Of a DNA stretch of 64,000 nt, positions 4,187 through 39,623 are shown one piece after another. The notes below the pieces were generated by a model. That model made no database searches and had not been told where the DNA came from. It worked only from the letters and a program-made list of their open reading frames with translations. The translations under genes were made by a program, and so were the position numbers. Within the stretch, counting starts at the first letter, position 1. Each line of letters begins with the position of its first letter. The DNA is taken from the NCBI GenBank assembly GCA_958009085.1, contig OY253680.1:372001-436000 (forward strand), in the 5' to 3' direction. The DNA comes from Protoeuglena noctilucae (lineage: Eukaryota).

Positions 4187-6566
4187 ATGGCGAGTCGCAT
4201 GCCCATCCCACGAGCGAGCGTGACTCGTTTCCCGTCTGGGCTGCCCGTGCGCCGTTTGCGTTTCGTTTTCCTGGCCGCGCCCGAGGCTGCCGCCGTGCCT
4301 CTGCAGCTCTCATGCATACGGGGTCTTCGTGCAACGGCTCGCGATGGCGCGGCTCATCGGGACCGCGTGGACATGCCTGCAGGTCCACGCCACAGGGCGA
4401 CAGAGCCTGCTCCGGGCACAGGAGAACCGGAACGCGAAGCGCAGGGAGCAAGAGTTGCGGGATGTCGAAGTGATGCGGTACTTTGGGGAGCAGCGGTGAG
4501 GCGCCCACGGGTCCGCGGGGCATGCCGAGCGTGTCCATGTCGTCGACATTTCAGGGCCCGGCCGTCGGGCGAGGGGCGTGCGAGCGCTCTGGACCGCCTC
4601 GTGTGCGCAGGTCATTGGAATCGGGTCTGCGGCAGATGGAGCGGGACCCCGAGCGGCGGAAGCTGCGGGAGATGAAGGAGCGGGAGCTCGAGGCACGGGT
4701 GCTGGAGGACGTGCGCAGGTGCGGCGCGGGGCAGCGATGACCCGCACGCCACCGCGAGCCCCGTCGATGCGAGCTCCACGGCTGACCCCGTCCTGCCGCG
4801 TCCCCAGGGCCACGGTGGAGGGGCAGCTGCGGGCGCAGCAGGCGGACGAGGAGGGGCGCATCCTGGCCGAGATAGAGCGCCGTGACAAGGCTCAGCTGCG
4901 TCACCGCCTGGAGCTGCAGAAGCTGTGCGAGGAGAGCGAGGAGCTGCGGGTGCTGCGGGAGAAGCTGCGGATGGCGCAGACGACGTTTGAGCGGTCGCGT
5001 CAGAGGGACGAGGCGGCCATGATCGAGCGCAAGGAGCGGGAGTACGAGGCGGCGCTGCATGAGGCGATGGAGAGGCGGCTGGAGAGCGAGCGGGAGGCCG
5101 AGCTGGAGAGGGAACGCCGCCGCCACGAGGACTTCCTGCATGCCAAGGCGGTGCTGGTGGAGCAGATGGAGGTGAGGGCGTCTTCGCCGGCAAGGCGCGA
5201 GCTGAGATTGAGTGGCTCAGGACGGCGTCGGAGATGCGGGTGACCAAAATGCGACCTTGCGTGGGCCGCCCCAATCGACGCTGCCGCTGCCACTGCACGC
5301 AGGAGCGCAAGGAGGCGCAGCGCCTGGCCAAGCTCGAATTCGAGCGGGAGCGCGCCATGGTGGACGAGATCGCGCGGCGCATCGCGGAGGAGGAGCAGAT
5401 GGAGGCGGAGGCCAAGCGCCGCAAGCAGGAGGACACGCGGCAGTACATCCAGCAGTTCCTGCTGGAGCAGGAGGAGATGCGGATGCGGCAGGTCGCGGAG
5501 GAGGTGAGGGCTGCAGGTTCAAGGGTGCACACATGGGGCCCAGCATGGGTCGCGTTTGGATGACGTAGCGACTGGGGCCCTGCACAGCCGGGCCGTCGGT
5601 GGAGCGCCCCGGCGATCACTGTCCCCGCAGGAGGAGGAGGAGCGTCGGATCGAGGAGTACGCGGCCCGCGTGCGCGCACGGCAGGCGGAGGAGGAGGCGC
5701 GCAAGGCGGCTCGCAAGGAGGCCGCGGACCGCATCTACGACCAGATCCGGGCGCAGCGGGAGGAGGAGATGCGGCAGCGGGAGGAGGAGGAGCGCCTGAT
5801 CAACCTGCTGCGGGAGGAGGAGGAGGAGGAGCGCCGGCGGCGCGCGGAGCAGGAGCGGCGGGAGCGGCAGGAGCGCATGCGGCAGGAGATGATGGAGGCC
5901 AACGAGTACCAGAAGAAGTTGCGGGCGGAAAGGAGGGCGATGGAGGAGGCGGAGGAGCTCGAGTTCCGCCGCCAGATGATGGCCAAGGTGGGGGGCTCGC
6001 AGGGGCAGTGCGGTGGTGCTGCGGTGCCGCGAGCGTGGGTTTCGCGAGGCCGCAGCGGCTGTGGGAGTGGCCTGTCATACAATGCGACTCTCTCGGCCCA
6101 TACCTCGGCAGTTCGAGGAGGACGAGCGCATCGAGCGCCTCAATGCCCAGCGCCGGCGTCAGAAGATGCTGGACCACAAGGCCGAGGTGGAGCGCCTCAT
6201 CGCGGAGCGCCGCGAGATGTACGAGCGCATGCGGGCGCTCGAGGCGGAGCAGATGGTCGCGGAGAAGTACAGGCGAGGCGCGCAGGGGCTGGGGTGCTGT
6301 TTCGACTTCTCAGGTCAATAGCGAGTGCTGCGGCTGACGGTGGCCACTGAGCCCCCATGGTGGAGCGGTGCCTGTAATGCTGCCTCTGAAAGCGACCTGT
6401 TGTCGCGTCGGTGCGCAGGGAAGAGGAGAAGGCGGCGCTGGTGGAGCAGGAACGCCGGCGCCTGCTCCAGGAGTTTGCGCATCTCAAGGACTTCTTCCCC
6501 AAGGGCGTGCTCAAGCAGATGGAGGACATGGCGATCGTCGACAATGCCCTTCAACAGCGCGCATGA
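4187..6566 (+). CDS. MNS1: MNS1/FAP127-like coiled-coil ciliary microtubule inner protein (start approximate)
   Basis: Long E/R-rich coiled-coil exons, ESEELRVLREKLRMA, FEEDERIERLNAQRRRQKMLDHK, and C-terminal LLQEFAHLKDFFPKGVLK resembling the MNS1 C-terminus. Confidence 0.8.
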
Positions 6567-32446: not shown

Positions 32447-33351
32447 TCAGTCGAAGTAGGTGGGGATGGTCTTTAGGAAAGCCTCCTTGTCCTCCTGAGC
32501 AACCGACGGGGCGTCCGGGTTGTTGGGCGTGCTCTCGAGGCGCCGCCGCTTCGACCCGCACCCCAGCGACCGGCGCGTCTCCACGCCCGTGACAGGGTTC
32601 ACGCCGTCCGCGTATCGGCACATCTTGATTTGCTGGTCCTTGTCGATGAGGGCGTATGAGAAGTCCGCCCCGTAGATGTCCGCGGAACCAAAGTCTGACC
32701 GGGTGAACACGCCCCTCATCAGGATGGCGTTGCGCAGATTTGCCTCGTTCAGCACCGCGCGGTCCATGAGCGTGTCGGAGAGGTCGGCGCCCTCGAAGTT
32801 GGTCTGGAAGGCCACGGCCTTGATGAAGTACGCGCCGTTCAGCTTGCTCTTCTGCGATGGCAGGCAGCTTGGTTTGTCAGTCTTGTCTCATCCCGGGCGT
32901 GTCCTAGTCACATCCATGATGCGTCCACCGGCTGGCGTTCGGTCAGATGAGCTGGGACGCCGTGGAGACAGGTCGGCACCTGGAAGTTACATCGCCGCAC
33001 GTCCGCGGCAGTAAAGTTGGCCCGGCGGAGGTCCTGTCCTGAAAAGTCTTGCCCCGCTACATCCGCCTCCCCGAACTGCTGTGCCGAGCCGATGCCGAAC
33101 TCGCCGCCGGCTGCGGCCTCAAACCGGTTCAGCTCCGCCAGCGCCGGGCTTGCGACCATCAAAGTCAGCGCGATGGTGGTCGCAGCCAGCGCGCGCCCTC
33201 CTTTCCCATCCGTGGACTGTCCTGCAGCGCGCACCGTCCGTCCGGCTCTGCGGTGAGGCAGATAGCCGCGAGGCGCGACACACTTTGTCATCTGGTGGCC
33301 GGCACGCGACCCCGCTGCGGCGCGTCCGCTTGGCCACGCGATGATCGCCAT
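32447..33351 (-). CDS. Thylakoid lumenal pentapeptide-repeat protein (TL20.3-like)
   Basis: Bipartite signal ending ASPALA-ELNRFEA, GEFGIGSAQQFG, A(D/N)Lxx pentapeptide repeats, and CRYADGVNPVTGVETRRSLGC. Confidence 0.88.
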
Positions 33352-33816
33352 ACGCGCGAGCGACACATGCGCACCTTGCGTGTGCACAGCGCGAGGGCTT
33401 GCAACCCCAAGCTGAGCGCGGATTCGCGCCGATGGAGCAGGACATGGTGCGCACTGGAATCGCCCCCAAGCCTCCACCCCGGCCGCTCCAAGTGAAAGTC
33501 CGTGACACGATCGGCGCGAAAGACCATCTCCGCGCCCCGCCCGTGCCTCCTGGGCGCGCAGCCGCACCTGGCGACCACTGGCAGTTTCTGACGCCTCGAG
33601 AGCGGCCCCTCTTTGCCCCGCCGGGACCCCAGCGCTCTCTCCGAATTCGACTAGGGACCTCTCGCGCGCTCGTGAGTTCTGCGACCATGACGCTCAAGGT
33701 GCGGGACGGGATGGGGAGATAAGCGGGGGCGAGCCGGTGTAGTAGGCTCCGAGCGCGTGGCGGCCTGCCACCCCCTCGAACCCTTCGACGGCTTCGATTG
33801 CCCGCCACACGGCCAC

Positions 33817-33822
33817 TATAAA
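33817..33822 (+). promoter_or_regulatory. Candidate TATA box (TATAAA) upstream of the Rubisco activase gene
   Basis: cacTATAAAgcc lies about 100 nt before the ATG at 33922, in otherwise very GC-rich DNA. Confidence 0.5.
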
Positions 33823-33921
33823 GCCGGCGCGCCCTGCGGCCGCCTCGCTTCGCCGCGCAGCCCGTCCCGAGTTGAGGCCCCCCTTGAACGGGACCCCCGC
33901 GCTCGATCCCCGCAGGTTTCC

Positions 33922-36900
33922 ATGACCACGGGCGTCAGGTGACTTCCTCTTCCTCGTCTGCGCCACTGCGCGCGGCCGGGGCGCCCCGCGCTGCGCGGGC
34001 CGTCCTGGCCGTCGCGGAAAGGCGCCCACCCCTGGCTCGGGGGTGGCGCGCCGCCCTCGCGTGCCCTCTCGCCGCCCCGCTCCGCTTTCGGGAAGCTCAT
34101 GACCGATTTCGTGCTTGTCTCCCCCCGGACGGCCGCGTGGGCGAGCGCATCGCCCGGGTACTCGGCACGTTGCCACGCGACCCCCCGTCGCCCCCGCGAG
34201 GGGCGGCAGGCCCCGGGCCCCCGAGGCGTCCACAAGCGGCCATTTCCGTTCTCGGGGTGGCGCTTGCCGGCGCCGACGGCCCGTTCCGGGCCTCCCGAGG
34301 CCCCCCAGCCACTCCGGAGCCTTGCGGCTCGTCGACCGAGCGGCGCACGGCCGCCTTCCGCCGGTTTCGCGTTTATCGTTGCTTACGGCCGTTGCCGCGA
34401 CTGCCGGGAGAGCGGCCGCCGGTCGCCCGCGGGCGCGGGAGGCTGCATCGACCCCTGGCCCTCATCAGCCCTCGAGCACCCGCGGGGCTCCGCTGCACCT
34501 CCACTCACCTCTCCCCCTCCTTCTCCCCGTTGCAGGGCCCGTATGGCTCCGGCCGCCGGCCGCCGCTCGCGGCCTGTGTGCCGCTACGGCAAGAAGGACA
34601 GCAAGGCGTCTTCCTGGGACGCTTGGGAGTCGGCCTCCGGTTCCAGCTCCTTCTGGGACACCAAGTCGTCCTCGTCCTCTAAGTCGTCCTCCGGCTCGTC
34701 GTCCGGCTCCAGCTCCTTCTGGGACACCAAGCCCTCGTCCGGCGCCAGCTCCTTCTGGGACACGACGCCGTCGTCCGGCTCTTCCTCGACGGGCAGCAGC
34801 TCGTTCTGGGACACGACGCCCTCGTCCGGCTCGTCTTCTTCGTCCGGCGCCAGCTCCTTCTGGGACACCACGCCCTCGTCCTCCAGCTCGTCGTCCGGCG
34901 CCAGCTCCTTCTGGGACACGACGCCGTCGTCCGGCTCTTCCTCGACGGGCAGCAGCTCGTTCTGGGACACGCCCTCTTCCTCCAGCTCGTCGTCGAGCAG
35001 CTCCTTCTGGGACACCAAGTCGTCGTCGTCGTCGTCCTCCGGCTCGTCGTCGAGCAGCAACTTCTGGGACACCTTCTCGTCCGGCTCGACTGGCGGCAGC
35101 TCCTTCTGGGACACCAAGTCTTCCTCGTCCACGCCCGCCTCGTCCAAGTCCACGAGCTCCTTCTGGGACACGACGCCCTCGTCCTCCAGCTCGTCGTCCG
35201 GCGCCAGCTCCTTCTGGGACACCATGCCCTCGTCCTCCAGCTCGTCGTCCGGCGCCAGCTCCTTCTGGGACACGACGCCGTCGTCCGGCTCTTCCTCGAC
35301 GGGCAGCAGCTCGTTCTGGGACACGACGCCCTCGTCTGGCTCGTCGTCTTCGTCCGGCGCCAGCTCCTTCTGGGATACGCCCTCGTCCTCCAGCTCGTCG
35401 TCCGGCGCCAGCTCCTTCTGGGACACCGAGCCCTCGTCCGGCTCGTCTTCCGGCGCCAGCTCCTTCTGGGACACGACGCCGTCGTCCGGCTCTTCCTCGA
35501 CGGGCAGCAGCTCCTTCTGGGACACGACGCCCTCGTCCAGCTCGTCTTCGTCCGGCGCCAGCTCCTTCTGGGACACCACGCCCTCGTCCTCCAGCTCGTC
35601 GCCCGGCGCCAGCTCCTTCTGGGACACCACGCCCTCGTCCTCCAGCTCGTCCTCCAGCTCGTCGTCGAGCAGCAACTTCTGGGACACCTTCTCGTCCGGC
35701 TCTTCCTCGAGTGGCGGCAGCTCCTTCTGGGACACCAAGTCTTCCTCGTCCACGCCCGCCTCGTCCAAGTCCACGAGCTCCTTCTGGGACACCAAGCTCG
35801 AGAAGACCACCTCTGCCCCTACGACCGAGAAGAAGAAGGACAACCGCAACGCCCCCGGCCGCTGGAAGGGCATGGACGCCGGCAGGGACACCTCGGACGA
35901 CCAACAGGACATCACCCGCGGCCGCGACATGGTTGACTCGCTCTTCCAGGGCAGCCAGGGCATGAGCGGCACCCACAACGCCATCCTCGCGTCGACCGAG
36001 TACATCAAGACGGCCCAGCGCAACTTCGGTGACCTCAAGGGCGACTACTACATCTCGCCGCGCTTCCTGGACAAGATGGCCATCCACATCGCCAAGAACT
36101 ACATGGACCTGCCCAAGATCAAGGTCCCGCTCATTCTCGGCATCTGGGGTGGCAAGGGCAACGGCAAGACCTTCCAGGTCGAGCTCGCCTACAAGAAGCT
36201 CGGCATCAACCCCATCGTCATGTCGGCCGGCGAGCTCGAGTCGGGCAACGCTGGCGAGCCTGCCAAGCTCGTCCGCCAGCGCTACAGGTGGGCCGCGGCG
36301 GCGCCGGCGGCGAGCTGGAGTGGCAGGCAGTGCTGCAGGTCTCGCGTGCCACGCCTGGCTGTGCCGCAGCGCTCGTGCGCCATGTGCCGCTGAGGTGCGC
36401 CTTGTCCGCAGGGAGGCGTCTGACATCATCAAGAAGGGCACGATGTGCTCGCTCTTCATCAACGACCTGGACGCCGGTGCCGGCCGCATGGGCGACACGA
36501 CCCAGTACACGGTCAACAACCAGATGGTGAACGCCACGCTGATGAACATCGCCGACAACCCCACCAACGTGCAGCTGCCCGGCGTGTACAACAACGAGAC
36601 CATTCCCCGTGTGCCCATCATCGTGACGGGCAACGACTTCTCGACCCTCTACGCGCCCCTCATCCGTGACGGCCGCATGGAGAAGTTCTACTGGGCGCCC
36701 ACGCGCGAGGACCGCATCGGCATCTGCATGGGCATCTTCTCCGCCGACGGCATCACCCAGGCGGACGTGACGAGGGTGAGCTGATGCTGGTTGAGGCGGG
36801 CGCGAGGGGGCACCCGGACAGACTGCTGTGGGGTTTTCTGACACGTGTCTCCCGCCCCCGCCCCCGCAGTTGGTGGACGCCTTCCCCAACCAGTCGATCG

Positions 36901-37187
36901 ACTTCTTCGGGGCCCTCCGCGCGCGCATCTACGACGACATGGTGCGCGACTTCATCAACAACACGGGCCTGGAGAACCTCCAGAAGCGCCTGGTCAACTC
37001 GCGCGAGGGCAAGGTCACCTTCGCGCCCCCCCGCATCACCATCGACAAGCTCCTGGCCTACGGCAACGCCCTGGTGGCCGAGCAGGACAACGTGCGCCGC
37101 ATCCAGCTGGCCGACTCGTACCTGTCGGGGGCCGACCTGGCGGGCAGCACGGGCAGCTCCCTGCCCGAGGCCGTGCGCAACAACTGA
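33922..37187 (+). CDS. RCA: Green-type Rubisco activase (AAA+) with an unusually long N-terminal FWDT/Ser repeat extension
   Basis: Exon 1 MTTGV(R) splices in frame (ag|gtgact...ttgcag|g) to [16 protein letters not shown]. Then [93 protein letters not shown] and [12 protein letters not shown]. Confidence 0.96.
34651..35793 (+). repeat. Coding tandem repeat: 23 units of FWDT plus Ser/Gly/Thr spacer (about 12-25 aa, mostly 16-19)
   Basis: ttctggga(c/t)ac recurs 23 times in one frame. Typical unit [17 protein letters not shown]. Confidence 0.97.
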
Positions 37188-37505
37188 GCGCCGCGGCGCA
37201 GGAGGCTTTTTGGGGCGAGCCAACGTGACCAGTTTTTGTGAGCGGATGCAGGAGCACGCCGCCCCTCCTGCCCCACGGGCCCCTTGTCGGGCCCGCCAAA
37301 CCCTCGCAAGGCAATAGACTCGTCCTGTCGGGTCTGCTCTGCCAGCGTCTTGGTGGCGCTGGCGGCCCGGATGCAGACATTGGATTGCGCGGCTGCATGC
37401 GGCTGGTATGGTGGTCTAGACTGCAACACGGTGCAGACGGTTGAAGCTCAGATAGGTCCATGCTAGAGGGGCCTCAGCGCCTTGCGCGCCCCATTCAGTG
37501 GCGCA

Positions 37506-39623
37506 TCACAGACCAAGCTGATCATAACCCCTAGGAGCTGGACGCGTGGGTTGGCCCCTTAGGCGGCCATATAGGCCCCCCACGGCCGATGCTGCCCACG
37601 ATGCGCTTGACCGCACCCCTGCCCAAGCTTGGGACGTGGCGGAGGCAGCAGACGCGCCCATTCCGCGTGTCGCTGGCGCAGCCTCGCCATCGAAGCCAAA
37701 GGGACCCGCCCCCGGCGGTGCACCTGCAAGGGCCACAAGTCCGGTCAGCGCACGGAGCATGATCGTGCCTCCGCAGATCGGCTACTACTTGCACTTGCAT
37801 CAGAGTGTCACTCTGATCTGCCCCCCCAGCAGCAAAGCGCTTCCCCATGCAGCTCACCTCCCGTTCCACCCTCGAAAGGGTCATACTCCTGGCCTTCCAA
37901 GGGTTGCCCTCGCCTCGTTTGAGCCGCCCCCGCAAACCCCCGGTAGATGAAGGCGGCGATGCCCCCCACCGCGCCGATGATGAACAGCGTGAGGAACACG
38001 CGGCCGGCCACACACCCCGAGCGCCGCTTGCCATCGCCTGTGCCTGGCGTGGGATGCGGCGCGGGCGTGGGCGTGCTTGGGTCGGGCGTGCTTGGAGAAG
38101 GGGTGCGTGGGCCTGGCGTGTCGGGTGCAGGGGTGCCGTGACCTGGCTCGGGCGGCTCCCCAACGGACAAGATGCGCTGGGCCTGGTCGTTCGGGACCTC
38201 TGGCCACGAGAAGACGCCCTGCCATGTCTGACCGCCGTCATCAGATGCGGCGAGGGTCAGTGAGGCAGCGAAGTGGTCCACCAGGTCGGCGGGGGACGCC
38301 AGCTCTACGCAGCCCACGGCCCCTGGGCTCGCGAGCTCCACCACGACCTCGGATCCTCCGTCCGATCCCTCAGCTGCCTCCCACCAGAAGGTGGTCAGGG
38401 GCGTGTCGGCATACAGCTGGCCCTGCTGAGACAACTGCCCTCGCTTCTTCCACACGTCCAGGTCCAGCTGGGCGTCCGACTGCATGGAGCGAGGGACTCT
38501 CGGCGTCTCACCGTGACATGCGCCACACGGCTTGCGCGCGGCGCGCGCTTGCACGTGACGGCGCCCATCGATGGCTCCCACCTTGGCGGGCAGCAAGGCC
38601 CCCGAACAGTCCTGCTCTGCGTAAAACGCCACTTGGCTCAGGCTCCACAGGTGCTTCCCGCTCGCGTCCACAAAGGGCCCGCCCCGCTCCGACACGACTC
38701 TCCAGAAAGTGTGCACGTCGTCCGGCGGCGCCGGCGTCGGCGTCGGTGACGCGGGCGTGGGAGACGGGGTGGGCTCAGCGGGGGGTTCCGTCGGGCCGGG
38801 CGTGGGGCTGTCAGCAAAGCAGGCGAGGCAAGAAAAGAGGCCAGTGAAGCTCGAGTCCGACGCCGTAATCACTGCGGTCATTATGGCTCTTGGAATGGTG
38901 ATGCCATGTTGCGTACGGTGCCACAGAGAGCATGCCACCGATACTCGCCGCCGCAAGCAGTCCCAGAGCGCCGCGACGCTGGCCGACGCGGCACCCATGC
39001 CGGTCCCCGAGACAACCCCACACGCACCCAAGGGTCGGTCTTGGCCCACGTCCCGGAACATCTGCTTGGAGAGGTCGAACGGGTCGCCCAGAGCGGCGTC
39101 GTCGCCGCCCATGCGGTTCTCCTGTACGAACTGGCATGTCTTGGCGTCCTCGGTTGGGAGGTGCGTGACAGCGACGTGGAGGTCGTGAGGCATGCTGTCC
39201 GTCACCTGAGGGAACGGGTGCTTCCACAAGCGTCCAAACGCGCCGCACTCCGCGTCGCGCAGCGTCAGGAATGAAGACATTCGGGACGCGCACCTCGGGA
39301 AAGACCGTCTGAGCCGCGTCCCCGTCACACTGGAAGTAGACTCGTGGGGCTCCAAATTGAGAAGCCGGTTCAAAGGTGTACACTGTAAGCGTGTCGACCA
39401 TCACCTCCGCGGTGTCGGCCCGGGCTGCTTGCAGGACCGCCCCCGCAAGGAAAAGCAGGGCGAGCGCCTGGGATAAAAGGGTCCGTAGGTCGCGAGGCAC
39501 AGGATATGTATGCAAGCAGCATGGGGCACTACAGCAAGCGGGGATTGGAGACGGGCGCCGCGCGTGGTGGGCGAACGGAGCAGGCCGTGTCACCTGACGC
39601 GGACGCGCGGCCGCCATCCTCAT
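37506..39623 (-). CDS. Type I membrane protein: signal peptide, N-terminal Cys-containing domain, PT linkers, discoidin/F5-8-like domain, one TM, cytosolic tail
   Basis: ALALLFLAGAVLQAARA signal, PRVYFQC, PTPSPTP linkers, WRVV...WSLSQVAFY...ASDDGGQTW, TM VFLTLFIIGAVGGIAAFIY, and YDPF/YDQL in the tail. Confidence 0.7.

Follow-up and report, generated by a model that had tools for sequence, protein, structure and literature searches.

We analyzed a 64,000-nucleotide stretch of Protoeuglena noctilucae DNA (contig OY253680.1, positions 372,001 to 436,000), called the window here, in whose own numbering all positions are given. A three-exon gene for a green-type Rubisco activase (Rca) occupies 34543-37187 on the plus strand and encodes a protein of 808 residues. 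Between a short presequence and the Rca N-domain, its first exon encodes a serine-rich low-complexity array in which the motif FWDT occurs 23 times. The gene was compared with three RNA runs (X8, X12 and X13, from three metatranscriptome studies) and one DNA run (X5). Its features are listed below.

33914..34542, plus strand: 5' leader in the mature RNA, minimum extent, from a gapless X8 RNA contig (33914-34763); the introns have no RNA cover.
34543-36287, plus strand: exon 1, with the array, the N-domain and the start of the AAA+ core.
34543..34584, plus strand: start codon and 14-residue basic presequence, presumed to be a short transit peptide.
34609..35793, plus strand: Ser-rich low-complexity array, SSWDAW plus 23 units each closing in FWDT (from motif count, codon usage, RNA unitigs and AlphaFold2 confidence).
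35794..35856, plus strand: Lys/Thr-rich connector of 21 residues between the array and the N-domain, from the translation.
35857..36287, plus strand: remainder of exon 1, comprising the Rca N-domain and the first part of the AAA+ core; an RNA contig covers it without interruption from 35763 on.
36288..36411, plus strand: intron 1, GT..AG, 124 nucleotides; its joint is in all three RNA runs and absent from the DNA run.
36412..36775, plus strand: exon 2, AAA+ core (Pfam AAA, 31 bits; RNA contigs).
36776..36869, plus strand: intron 2, GT..AG, 94 nucleotides; its joint is in all three RNA runs.
36870..37187, plus strand: exon 3, Rca-specific helical domain (PF21228) and stop codon TGA.
37188..37450, plus strand: 3' untranslated region, from an RNA contig reaching 37450 in X12 and one reaching 37445 in X13; this is a lower bound, since the stretch compared with the RNA runs ended at 37450.

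The array covers residues 23-417 and opens with SSWDAW at residues 23-28. All 23 FWDT motifs lie in the plus-strand frame that begins at ATG 34543, the first at residue 37 (34651-34662) and the last at residue 414 (35782-35793), and the same uninterrupted open frame runs on through GRWKGMD and TSDDQQD of the N-domain. The earlier note, made from the sequence alone, had placed 23 FWDT and a leading WDAW in frame between the presequence and the Rca N-domain. Count and frame were borne out, and the length that it gave for the low-complexity part, about 380 residues, is corrected to about 395 (34609-35793). When the entire window was translated in six frames, every one of the 23 FWDT fell inside the array and none was found elsewhere.

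Neighboring FWDT motifs are 12-22 residues apart, most commonly 17, and 20 of the 22 spacings are below 20. The core consensus is G-[AS]-S-S-F-W-D-T-[TK]-P-S-S. The residues at positions -2 and 0 to +3 never change across the 23 units. At position -1 there are 21 S and 2 N, and the flanks vary (at +4, T in 11, K in 6, P in 2, F in 2, M in 1 and E in 1; at -3, A in 10, S in 9, G in 2 and T in 2). Serine makes up 51% of the array spacers and 204 of the 430 N-terminal residues. Only 34 of the 396 residues counted as array are charged (K+R 8, D+E 26), giving a net charge of -18, and 51 of the 430 N-terminal residues (12%) are aromatic. Evenly spaced aromatic residues in polar, low-charge spacers are a feature of sticker-and-spacer anatomy, and the array has it. 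It also holds 23 S-x-x-D sites, one per motif, and 16 [ST]P sites.

AlphaFold2, run on the single sequence of the N-terminal 430 residues, returned no secondary structure, a mean predicted local distance difference test score (pLDDT) of 32.1 with 426 of the 430 residues below 50, and a predicted template modeling score of 0.14. The low pLDDT fits a disordered array. Since unit length varies, a solenoid is argued against.

At the DNA level, Tandem Repeats Finder reported periods of 51, 201 and 354 nucleotides. The units form a mosaic of duplications with 70-100% DNA identity; several are 98-100% identical, and the longest exact repeat is 100 nucleotides. Across 13 flanking columns of the aligned units we counted at least 27 amino acid replacements, or about 2.1 for each column and 2.8 for the five variable columns closest to the motif, against none in the four motif columns. 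A rough Poisson calculation gave P values of 2.5e-4 to 1.4e-5 for this invariance, which are indicative only, as the calculation ignores the kinship of the units and alignment slippage. The most diverged units (2, 3, 9-11 and 21-23; 70-87% identity, differing lengths) retain the motif. The earlier observation that the motif is invariant while the spacers vary was thus upheld, with four motif columns identical in 23 units.

The GC content at third codon positions (GC3) was 0.94 in the array and 0.95-0.99 in the Rca exons, compared with 0.76 in the 444 nucleotides upstream. The Ser codons of the array are mixed (TCC 76, TCG 70, AGC 40, TCT 17, AGT 1), which indicates that the array is not a product of simple trinucleotide slippage or a microsatellite. 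No donor of the GTGAG or GTGGG type was found within the array.

Of 24 public runs listed, 20 contained the stretch 33700-37450; these come from 7 studies, and RNA runs account for 11 of them. The environmental runs with the stretch were all labeled marine. Among the runs compared, each of the three RNA runs has both Rca introns spliced out, and the DNA run has neither joint. The spliced contig of each RNA run starts at 35763, within the last FWDT unit, and continues through Rca; the DNA contig also breaks at 35763, as expected at a repeat. The array unitig 34942-35071 was found in X8, X12 and X13. Unitigs 35244-35325, 35622-35686 and 35657-35792 were found in X12 and X13, and 35657-35744 in X8, all without a single difference. 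No joint removing any part of 34543-36284 was seen in the three RNA runs. In the bins straddling intron 1 the depth equaled the exon share exactly (65/126 x 2500.5 = 1289.9 in X8; X12 and X13 likewise). The RNA libraries held no measurable DNA of the locus, and the array pieces therefore came from RNA. Contig depths were not used for ranking parts of the gene. The array is coding and is expressed as mRNA: spliced contigs from three studies reach into it, its unitigs are present, and no joint skips it.

In run X8, one RNA contig follows the Rca exon as far as 36943, beyond which come 255 nucleotides of different sequence that still looks Rca-like. This is a second Rca transcript in the sample, from a paralogue or another species.

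The Rca portion of the protein is, judged by its sequence, a canonical green-type activase. Exon 3 matched PF21228 at 98.4 bits (cut-off 27) and exon 2 matched Pfam AAA at 31 bits; exon 1 alone gave 17.4 bits for AAA, under the cut-off. The N-domain signature is intact, with GRWKGMD at residues 439-445 (35857-35877) and TSDDQQD at residues 450-456 (35890-35910), as is the Walker A motif GGKGNGKT at 36148-36171. When the Rca part of exon 1 was used as a query, 1955 of 2116 candidates matched at E<=0.001, with 65-81% identity to Rca proteins and the best algal identities being 81% (P0004) and 80% (Chlorella variabilis). The homologues read also carry the conserved Trp and S/T-DDQQD of the N-domain. 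In a quick tree of 32 rows (the window protein and 31 of the 120 listed proteins, namely the named ones and the top unnamed ones), the window Rca formed a clade with P0004 and P0015 that has no named member (Shimodaira-Hasegawa-like approximate likelihood ratio test, 98). A minus-strand open reading frame at 34584-36044 (486 residues) was rejected as the mirror artefact of a high-GC3 frame; the splicing polarity puts the transcript on the plus strand.

The start of the protein was assigned from codon statistics and RNA. The leader extends at least 630 nucleotides before ATG 34543 (GC 0.76). It contains a 6-codon upstream open reading frame at ATG 33922; a further ATG, at 34099, is in frame and meets no stop before 34543. 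GC by codon position in the leader is 0.72/0.78/0.76, without coding periodicity, and GC3 climbs to 0.86 from 34543 on. Since coding periodicity sets in at 34543, this ATG was assigned as the start. ATG 34099, which would make the presequence 148 residues longer, is unlikely to be the true start since codon-position GC is flat there. The X8 RNA contig crosses 34535/34536 unbroken and reads through the acceptor-like TTGCAG at 34530-34535, so that the exon start at 34536 proposed in the earlier note lies within the 5' leader of that transcript. An upstream mini-exon (ATG 33922, donor 33939) joined in frame to acceptor 34535 was also rejected, as its joint was in none of the four runs and the RNA contig crosses the site. 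X12 and X13 have no cover of 33700-34707. Upstream of the leader, TATAAA stands at 33818-33823. The 14-residue basic presequence, presumed to be a transit peptide, is followed by a short YGKKDSKA stretch before SSWDAW, and the total presequence ahead of the array is 14-22 residues.

To place the array among relatives, we compared Rca proteins and loci. FWDT was absent from all nine Rca relatives read. With the Rca part of exon 1 as query, 319 relatives were found on metagenome contigs. From these, 80 loci (68-81% identity) were kept, and the DDQQD anchor was found in 79 of the 80, the exception being L078. None of the 79 anchored loci had FWD or WD in the open frame upstream of DDQQD, and none of the 80 had three or more aromatic-WD-type motifs within 100 residues in six frames. 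Two loci, L001 and L008 (GC 0.68), carry a divergent pentapeptide-repeat gene next to Rca, as the window does, and were taken to be orthologous because they share this neighbor; their presequences are ordinary, about 60-77 residues long. By these comparisons the array is a lineage-specific addition to an otherwise canonical Rca. P0015, which is among the two closest Rca relatives, starts MRAGWDSADSWGSSSGSSYSSSSRSSSGS..., a short Ser-rich, Trp-bearing leader ahead of the N-domain, and the array may have a small or truncated equivalent in this leader. Its likeness to the window leader is weak (score 64, against 51.8 +/- 6.0 for shuffles, 19 of 500 of which reach 64).

An index-free phmmer search of the array against 1.84 billion representative proteins gave 17 matches at E<=0.001, none of them an Rca. 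Sixteen were unrelated repeat proteins, such as an SF3B1-like protein with RWDATPTP. The remaining match, P0128, is a protein of 875 residues that is present in JGI only, has no Pfam match and is otherwise unrelated to the window protein. It contains 12 SSF[WF] motifs, 9 of them SSFWD, which stand 15-22 residues apart in Gln/Glu-rich spacers. P0128 is acidic (K+R 12, D+E 40), and its N-terminus looks transit-peptide-like by eye. The SSFW[D/G] core common to P0128 and the Rca array suggests, at the level of sequence, a real short linear motif. In P0128 and P0142 (875-900 residues), the motif array is followed by a Glu/Arg-rich, coiled-coil-like region and a C-terminal domain. Queried with the C-terminal part of P0128, a word-indexed search found no protein but P0128, and the ESM Atlas gave no usable match for the array or P0128. 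The word-indexed search with the array gave no match among 7997 candidates and was probably swamped by Ser words. A full-text search of the accessible literature found no description of an FWDT motif or of a repeat-bearing eukaryotic Rca.

The neighbors in the window are ordinary nuclear genes, which by Pfam encode a SacI-domain phosphatase, an NAD-dependent epimerase/dehydratase-family protein, UEV, biotin carboxylase, Rieske, RtcB, pentapeptide-repeat and WD40 proteins. No gene of the carbon-concentrating mechanism was seen among the 20 window segments scanned. The pentapeptide-repeat gene at 32450-33693 (minus strand) is divergent from Rca, and the pair is conserved in L001 and L008. Its presequence looks bipartite, a basic stretch followed by a hydrophobic ...ALTLMVASPALA, like that of a thylakoid-lumen protein. 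A 530-residue open frame at 37808-39400 (minus strand) has two Pro/Thr/Ser-rich tracts and a C-terminal hydrophobic segment, with no Pfam match on 37913-39169. A multi-exon Glu/Arg-rich gene at 4600-6550 (plus strand) matches the trichohyalin-plectin-homology domain.

The earlier note had proposed that the gene encodes an activase joined to a linker, and those preconditions of this reading that were checked hold: the array is in frame, has coding-like codons, is in spliced mRNA, is predicted to be disordered, has a conserved motif and appears lineage-specific. We favor, with a probability of roughly 0.45, the view that the array acts as a multivalent sticker-and-spacer domain based on aromatic residues, which retains Rca in a Rubisco condensate or contributes to forming one. 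The FW pairs would be the stickers and the Ser/Gly/Thr/Pro stretches the spacers, which would provide 23 weak contact points per subunit and up to 138 per hexamer. These contacts could hold the activase within a dense Rubisco phase such as the pyrenoid matrix, or help to form it. The motif could contact Rubisco directly; alternatively, the tails could self-associate via FW-FW contacts while the N-domain and the AAA+ ring engage Rubisco normally. Phosphorylation at S-x-x-D beside the aromatic pair could turn the contacts off. The S-x-x-D context of each motif matches the CK2 consensus, and a phospho-switch on the array is plausible from its sequence. We consider a condensate role the most economical reading because of the precedents of the Chlamydomonas Rca N-domain, cyanobacterial Rca and PYCO1. 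In the window Rca, both the W and TSDDQQD are still present in the N-domain; it is by these residues that Chlamydomonas Rca is partitioned into droplets of EPYC1 and Rubisco (PMC13172511).

Several observations weigh against this view. The activase evidently works without such an array, because the syntenic L001 and L008 and the other readable loci are free of it. The array is net acidic (-18), unlike the basic, helix-forming Rubisco-binding motif of the linkers, and to our knowledge the known Rubisco linkers are basic. No helix was predicted in the array by AlphaFold2. The total of 23 units is the count of the window assembly, and the short contigs confirm unit junctions only. With the in-frame ATG at 34099, the N-terminus of the protein could lie further upstream. 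Finally, most of the spacings (12-22 residues) are shorter than the 20-120 residues that the FLIPPer criterion gives as feasible for cross-linking Rubiscos (PMC11570498).

It is possible that the motif binds a partner other than Rubisco, such as a starch or polysaccharide sheath, a membrane surface or another stromal protein, and thereby anchors Rca at a particular place. The acidic nature of the array, unlike that of the known linkers, would agree with this, as would P0128, which has the same core in a non-Rca protein with a long coiled-coil-like, Glu/Arg-rich region. In addition, roles in glycan stacking or at interfaces are typical of Trp/Phe pairs that stand in Ser/Thr-rich tracts. However, Pfam found no carbohydrate- or membrane-binding family on the array-bearing exon and nothing beyond AAA, and the only known substrate of the fused enzyme is Rubisco. 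We consider a non-Rubisco partner unlikely.

On the other hand, the array may tune Rca itself, as a phospho-switchable, auto-inhibitory or solubility tail that alters hexamer assembly or masks the N-domain, with no condensate role. The array directly precedes the N-domain and offers the 23 S-x-x-D and 16 [ST]P sites, and plastid CK2 phosphorylates plant Rca. Furthermore, the phosphomimetic change S19D keeps Chlamydomonas Rca out of droplets (PMC13172511). A phospho-tail, however, needs no invariant aromatic pair, and 23 copies are far above the apparent need of regulation. We consider this explanation as improbable as the preceding one.

More doubtful still is a neutral or nearly neutral expansion of repeats, tolerated by an N-terminus that was disordered before, with the invariance coming from young units homogenized by unequal crossing-over. 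It would account for the nearly identical units and the exact repeats of up to 100 nucleotides, for the relatives without the array, and for F, W and D each being written with essentially one codon. However, the oldest units, which differ in length and have 70-87% identity, hold SSFWDT or SNFWDT exactly. GC3 and the diversity of Ser codons are coding-like, the gene was transcribed in three studies with every unitig shown identical in sequence, and P0128 carries an independent array with the same core.

The least credible explanation is that the array is part of the import signal or is cleaved off with it, in which case it would be a long unstructured stretch assisting a transit peptide of very small size. 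Acidic residues are avoided in transit peptides, an array of about 395 residues in which an acidic aromatic motif never changes goes far beyond the needs of a spacer, and relatives import Rca with presequences of 20-60 residues. In favor of this explanation are the presequence of only 14 residues and the report that Chlamydomonas transit peptides often need unstructured sequence downstream (PMC9133816).

A bolder form of the condensate-associated reading is improbable, although we rank it above the four explanations just given. In it, SSFWD[T] would be a new acidic, phospho-switchable Rubisco-binding motif belonging to a marine green-algal lineage that has been little studied, the activase hexamer would be a matrix scaffold replacing an EPYC1-like linker, and the same motif, in P0128, would be an address label for other pyrenoid proteins.

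Pyrenoid linkers arose independently several times, and each new one showed another way of condensing Rubisco; lists of linker parts also feed attempts at building pyrenoids in crops. If the condensate-associated reading is true, the window protein would be the first eukaryotic case of a repair enzyme and a scaffold or targeting module in one polypeptide, parallel to cyanobacterial Rca-SSUL, with CcmM as a further parallel to an Rca with its own multivalent module. Its acidic aromatic motif would be unlike any characterized sticker. Even if the array does no more than raise the retention of Rca, it would supply a useful portable motif, about 17 residues long, for concentrating a client with Rubisco. 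Should the tail regulate Rca or bind another structure, it would still amount to a clean natural experiment in how much change the N-terminus of Rca can bear.

Among known systems, sticker-and-spacer domains of the FUS/hnRNPA1 type belong to nuclear or cytosolic RNA-binding proteins that use single Tyr or Phe residues. The array resembles them in its even aromatic residues (51/430) within polar, Ser/Gly-rich, low-charge spacers. It differs in its putative sticker, four invariant residues that include Asp, and in belonging to a plastid enzyme.

The pyrenoid linkers EPYC1, CsLinker and SUPA1 have repeat units of roughly 45-60 residues. Like them, the window array consists of disordered repeats with a short conserved motif per repeat; the linkers bind multivalently, as the array would. 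The linkers are stand-alone proteins with 5-6 repeats, whereas the window array is fused to an enzyme and has 23 motifs 12-22 residues apart. Their motifs form helices and are positively charged or salt-bridging, while the window array is acidic and has no predicted helix. The SUPA1 motifs are positively charged helices (10.64898/2026.07.16.738900) and the EPYC1 stickers form salt bridges (PMC10288592).

The diatom protein PYCO1 provides a likeness in the motif. Its sticker KWSPRGGS is Trp-dependent, its aromatic residues drive homotypic and Rubisco-dependent condensation, and W-to-A changes abolish this (PMC10288592). In both proteins a Trp-centered short motif is followed by Ser/Pro/Gly, a likeness between the PYCO1 sticker and FWDT[T]PSSGSS that was judged by eye only. 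PYCO1 binds red-type Rubisco with a basic motif (K...R) in 6 copies of a stand-alone protein, whereas the window array is acidic, has 23 copies and is enzyme-fused.

In Chlamydomonas, a disordered Rca N-domain partitions the activase into EPYC1-Rubisco droplets, and changes of Trp-9 or Ser-19 abolish the partitioning (PMC13172511). The window Rca retains this W and the S/T-DDQQD. However, a single 61-residue N-domain suffices in Chlamydomonas, while the window protein adds 23 upstream aromatic motifs that read SSFWDT and not GRWKG.

Nostoc NosRca is a parallel in architecture. Through its C-terminal SSUL domain it makes an additional, non-catalytic contact with Rubisco and is packaged together with Rubisco in the carboxysome (10.1101/2020.05.16.099382). 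Both proteins are AAA+ Rubisco activases fused to an extra module, for which a role toward Rubisco would be supposed in the window protein. The SSUL domain is folded, RbcS-like, C-terminal and present once per subunit, whereas the window module is N-terminal and disordered, has 23 motifs and is unrelated in sequence. Pfam scans of the exons found no SSUL domain in the window Rca, which ends 30 residues past PF21228. An activase with an added association module thus has precedent, and the window Rca, with its FWDT repeats, would be a eukaryotic example.

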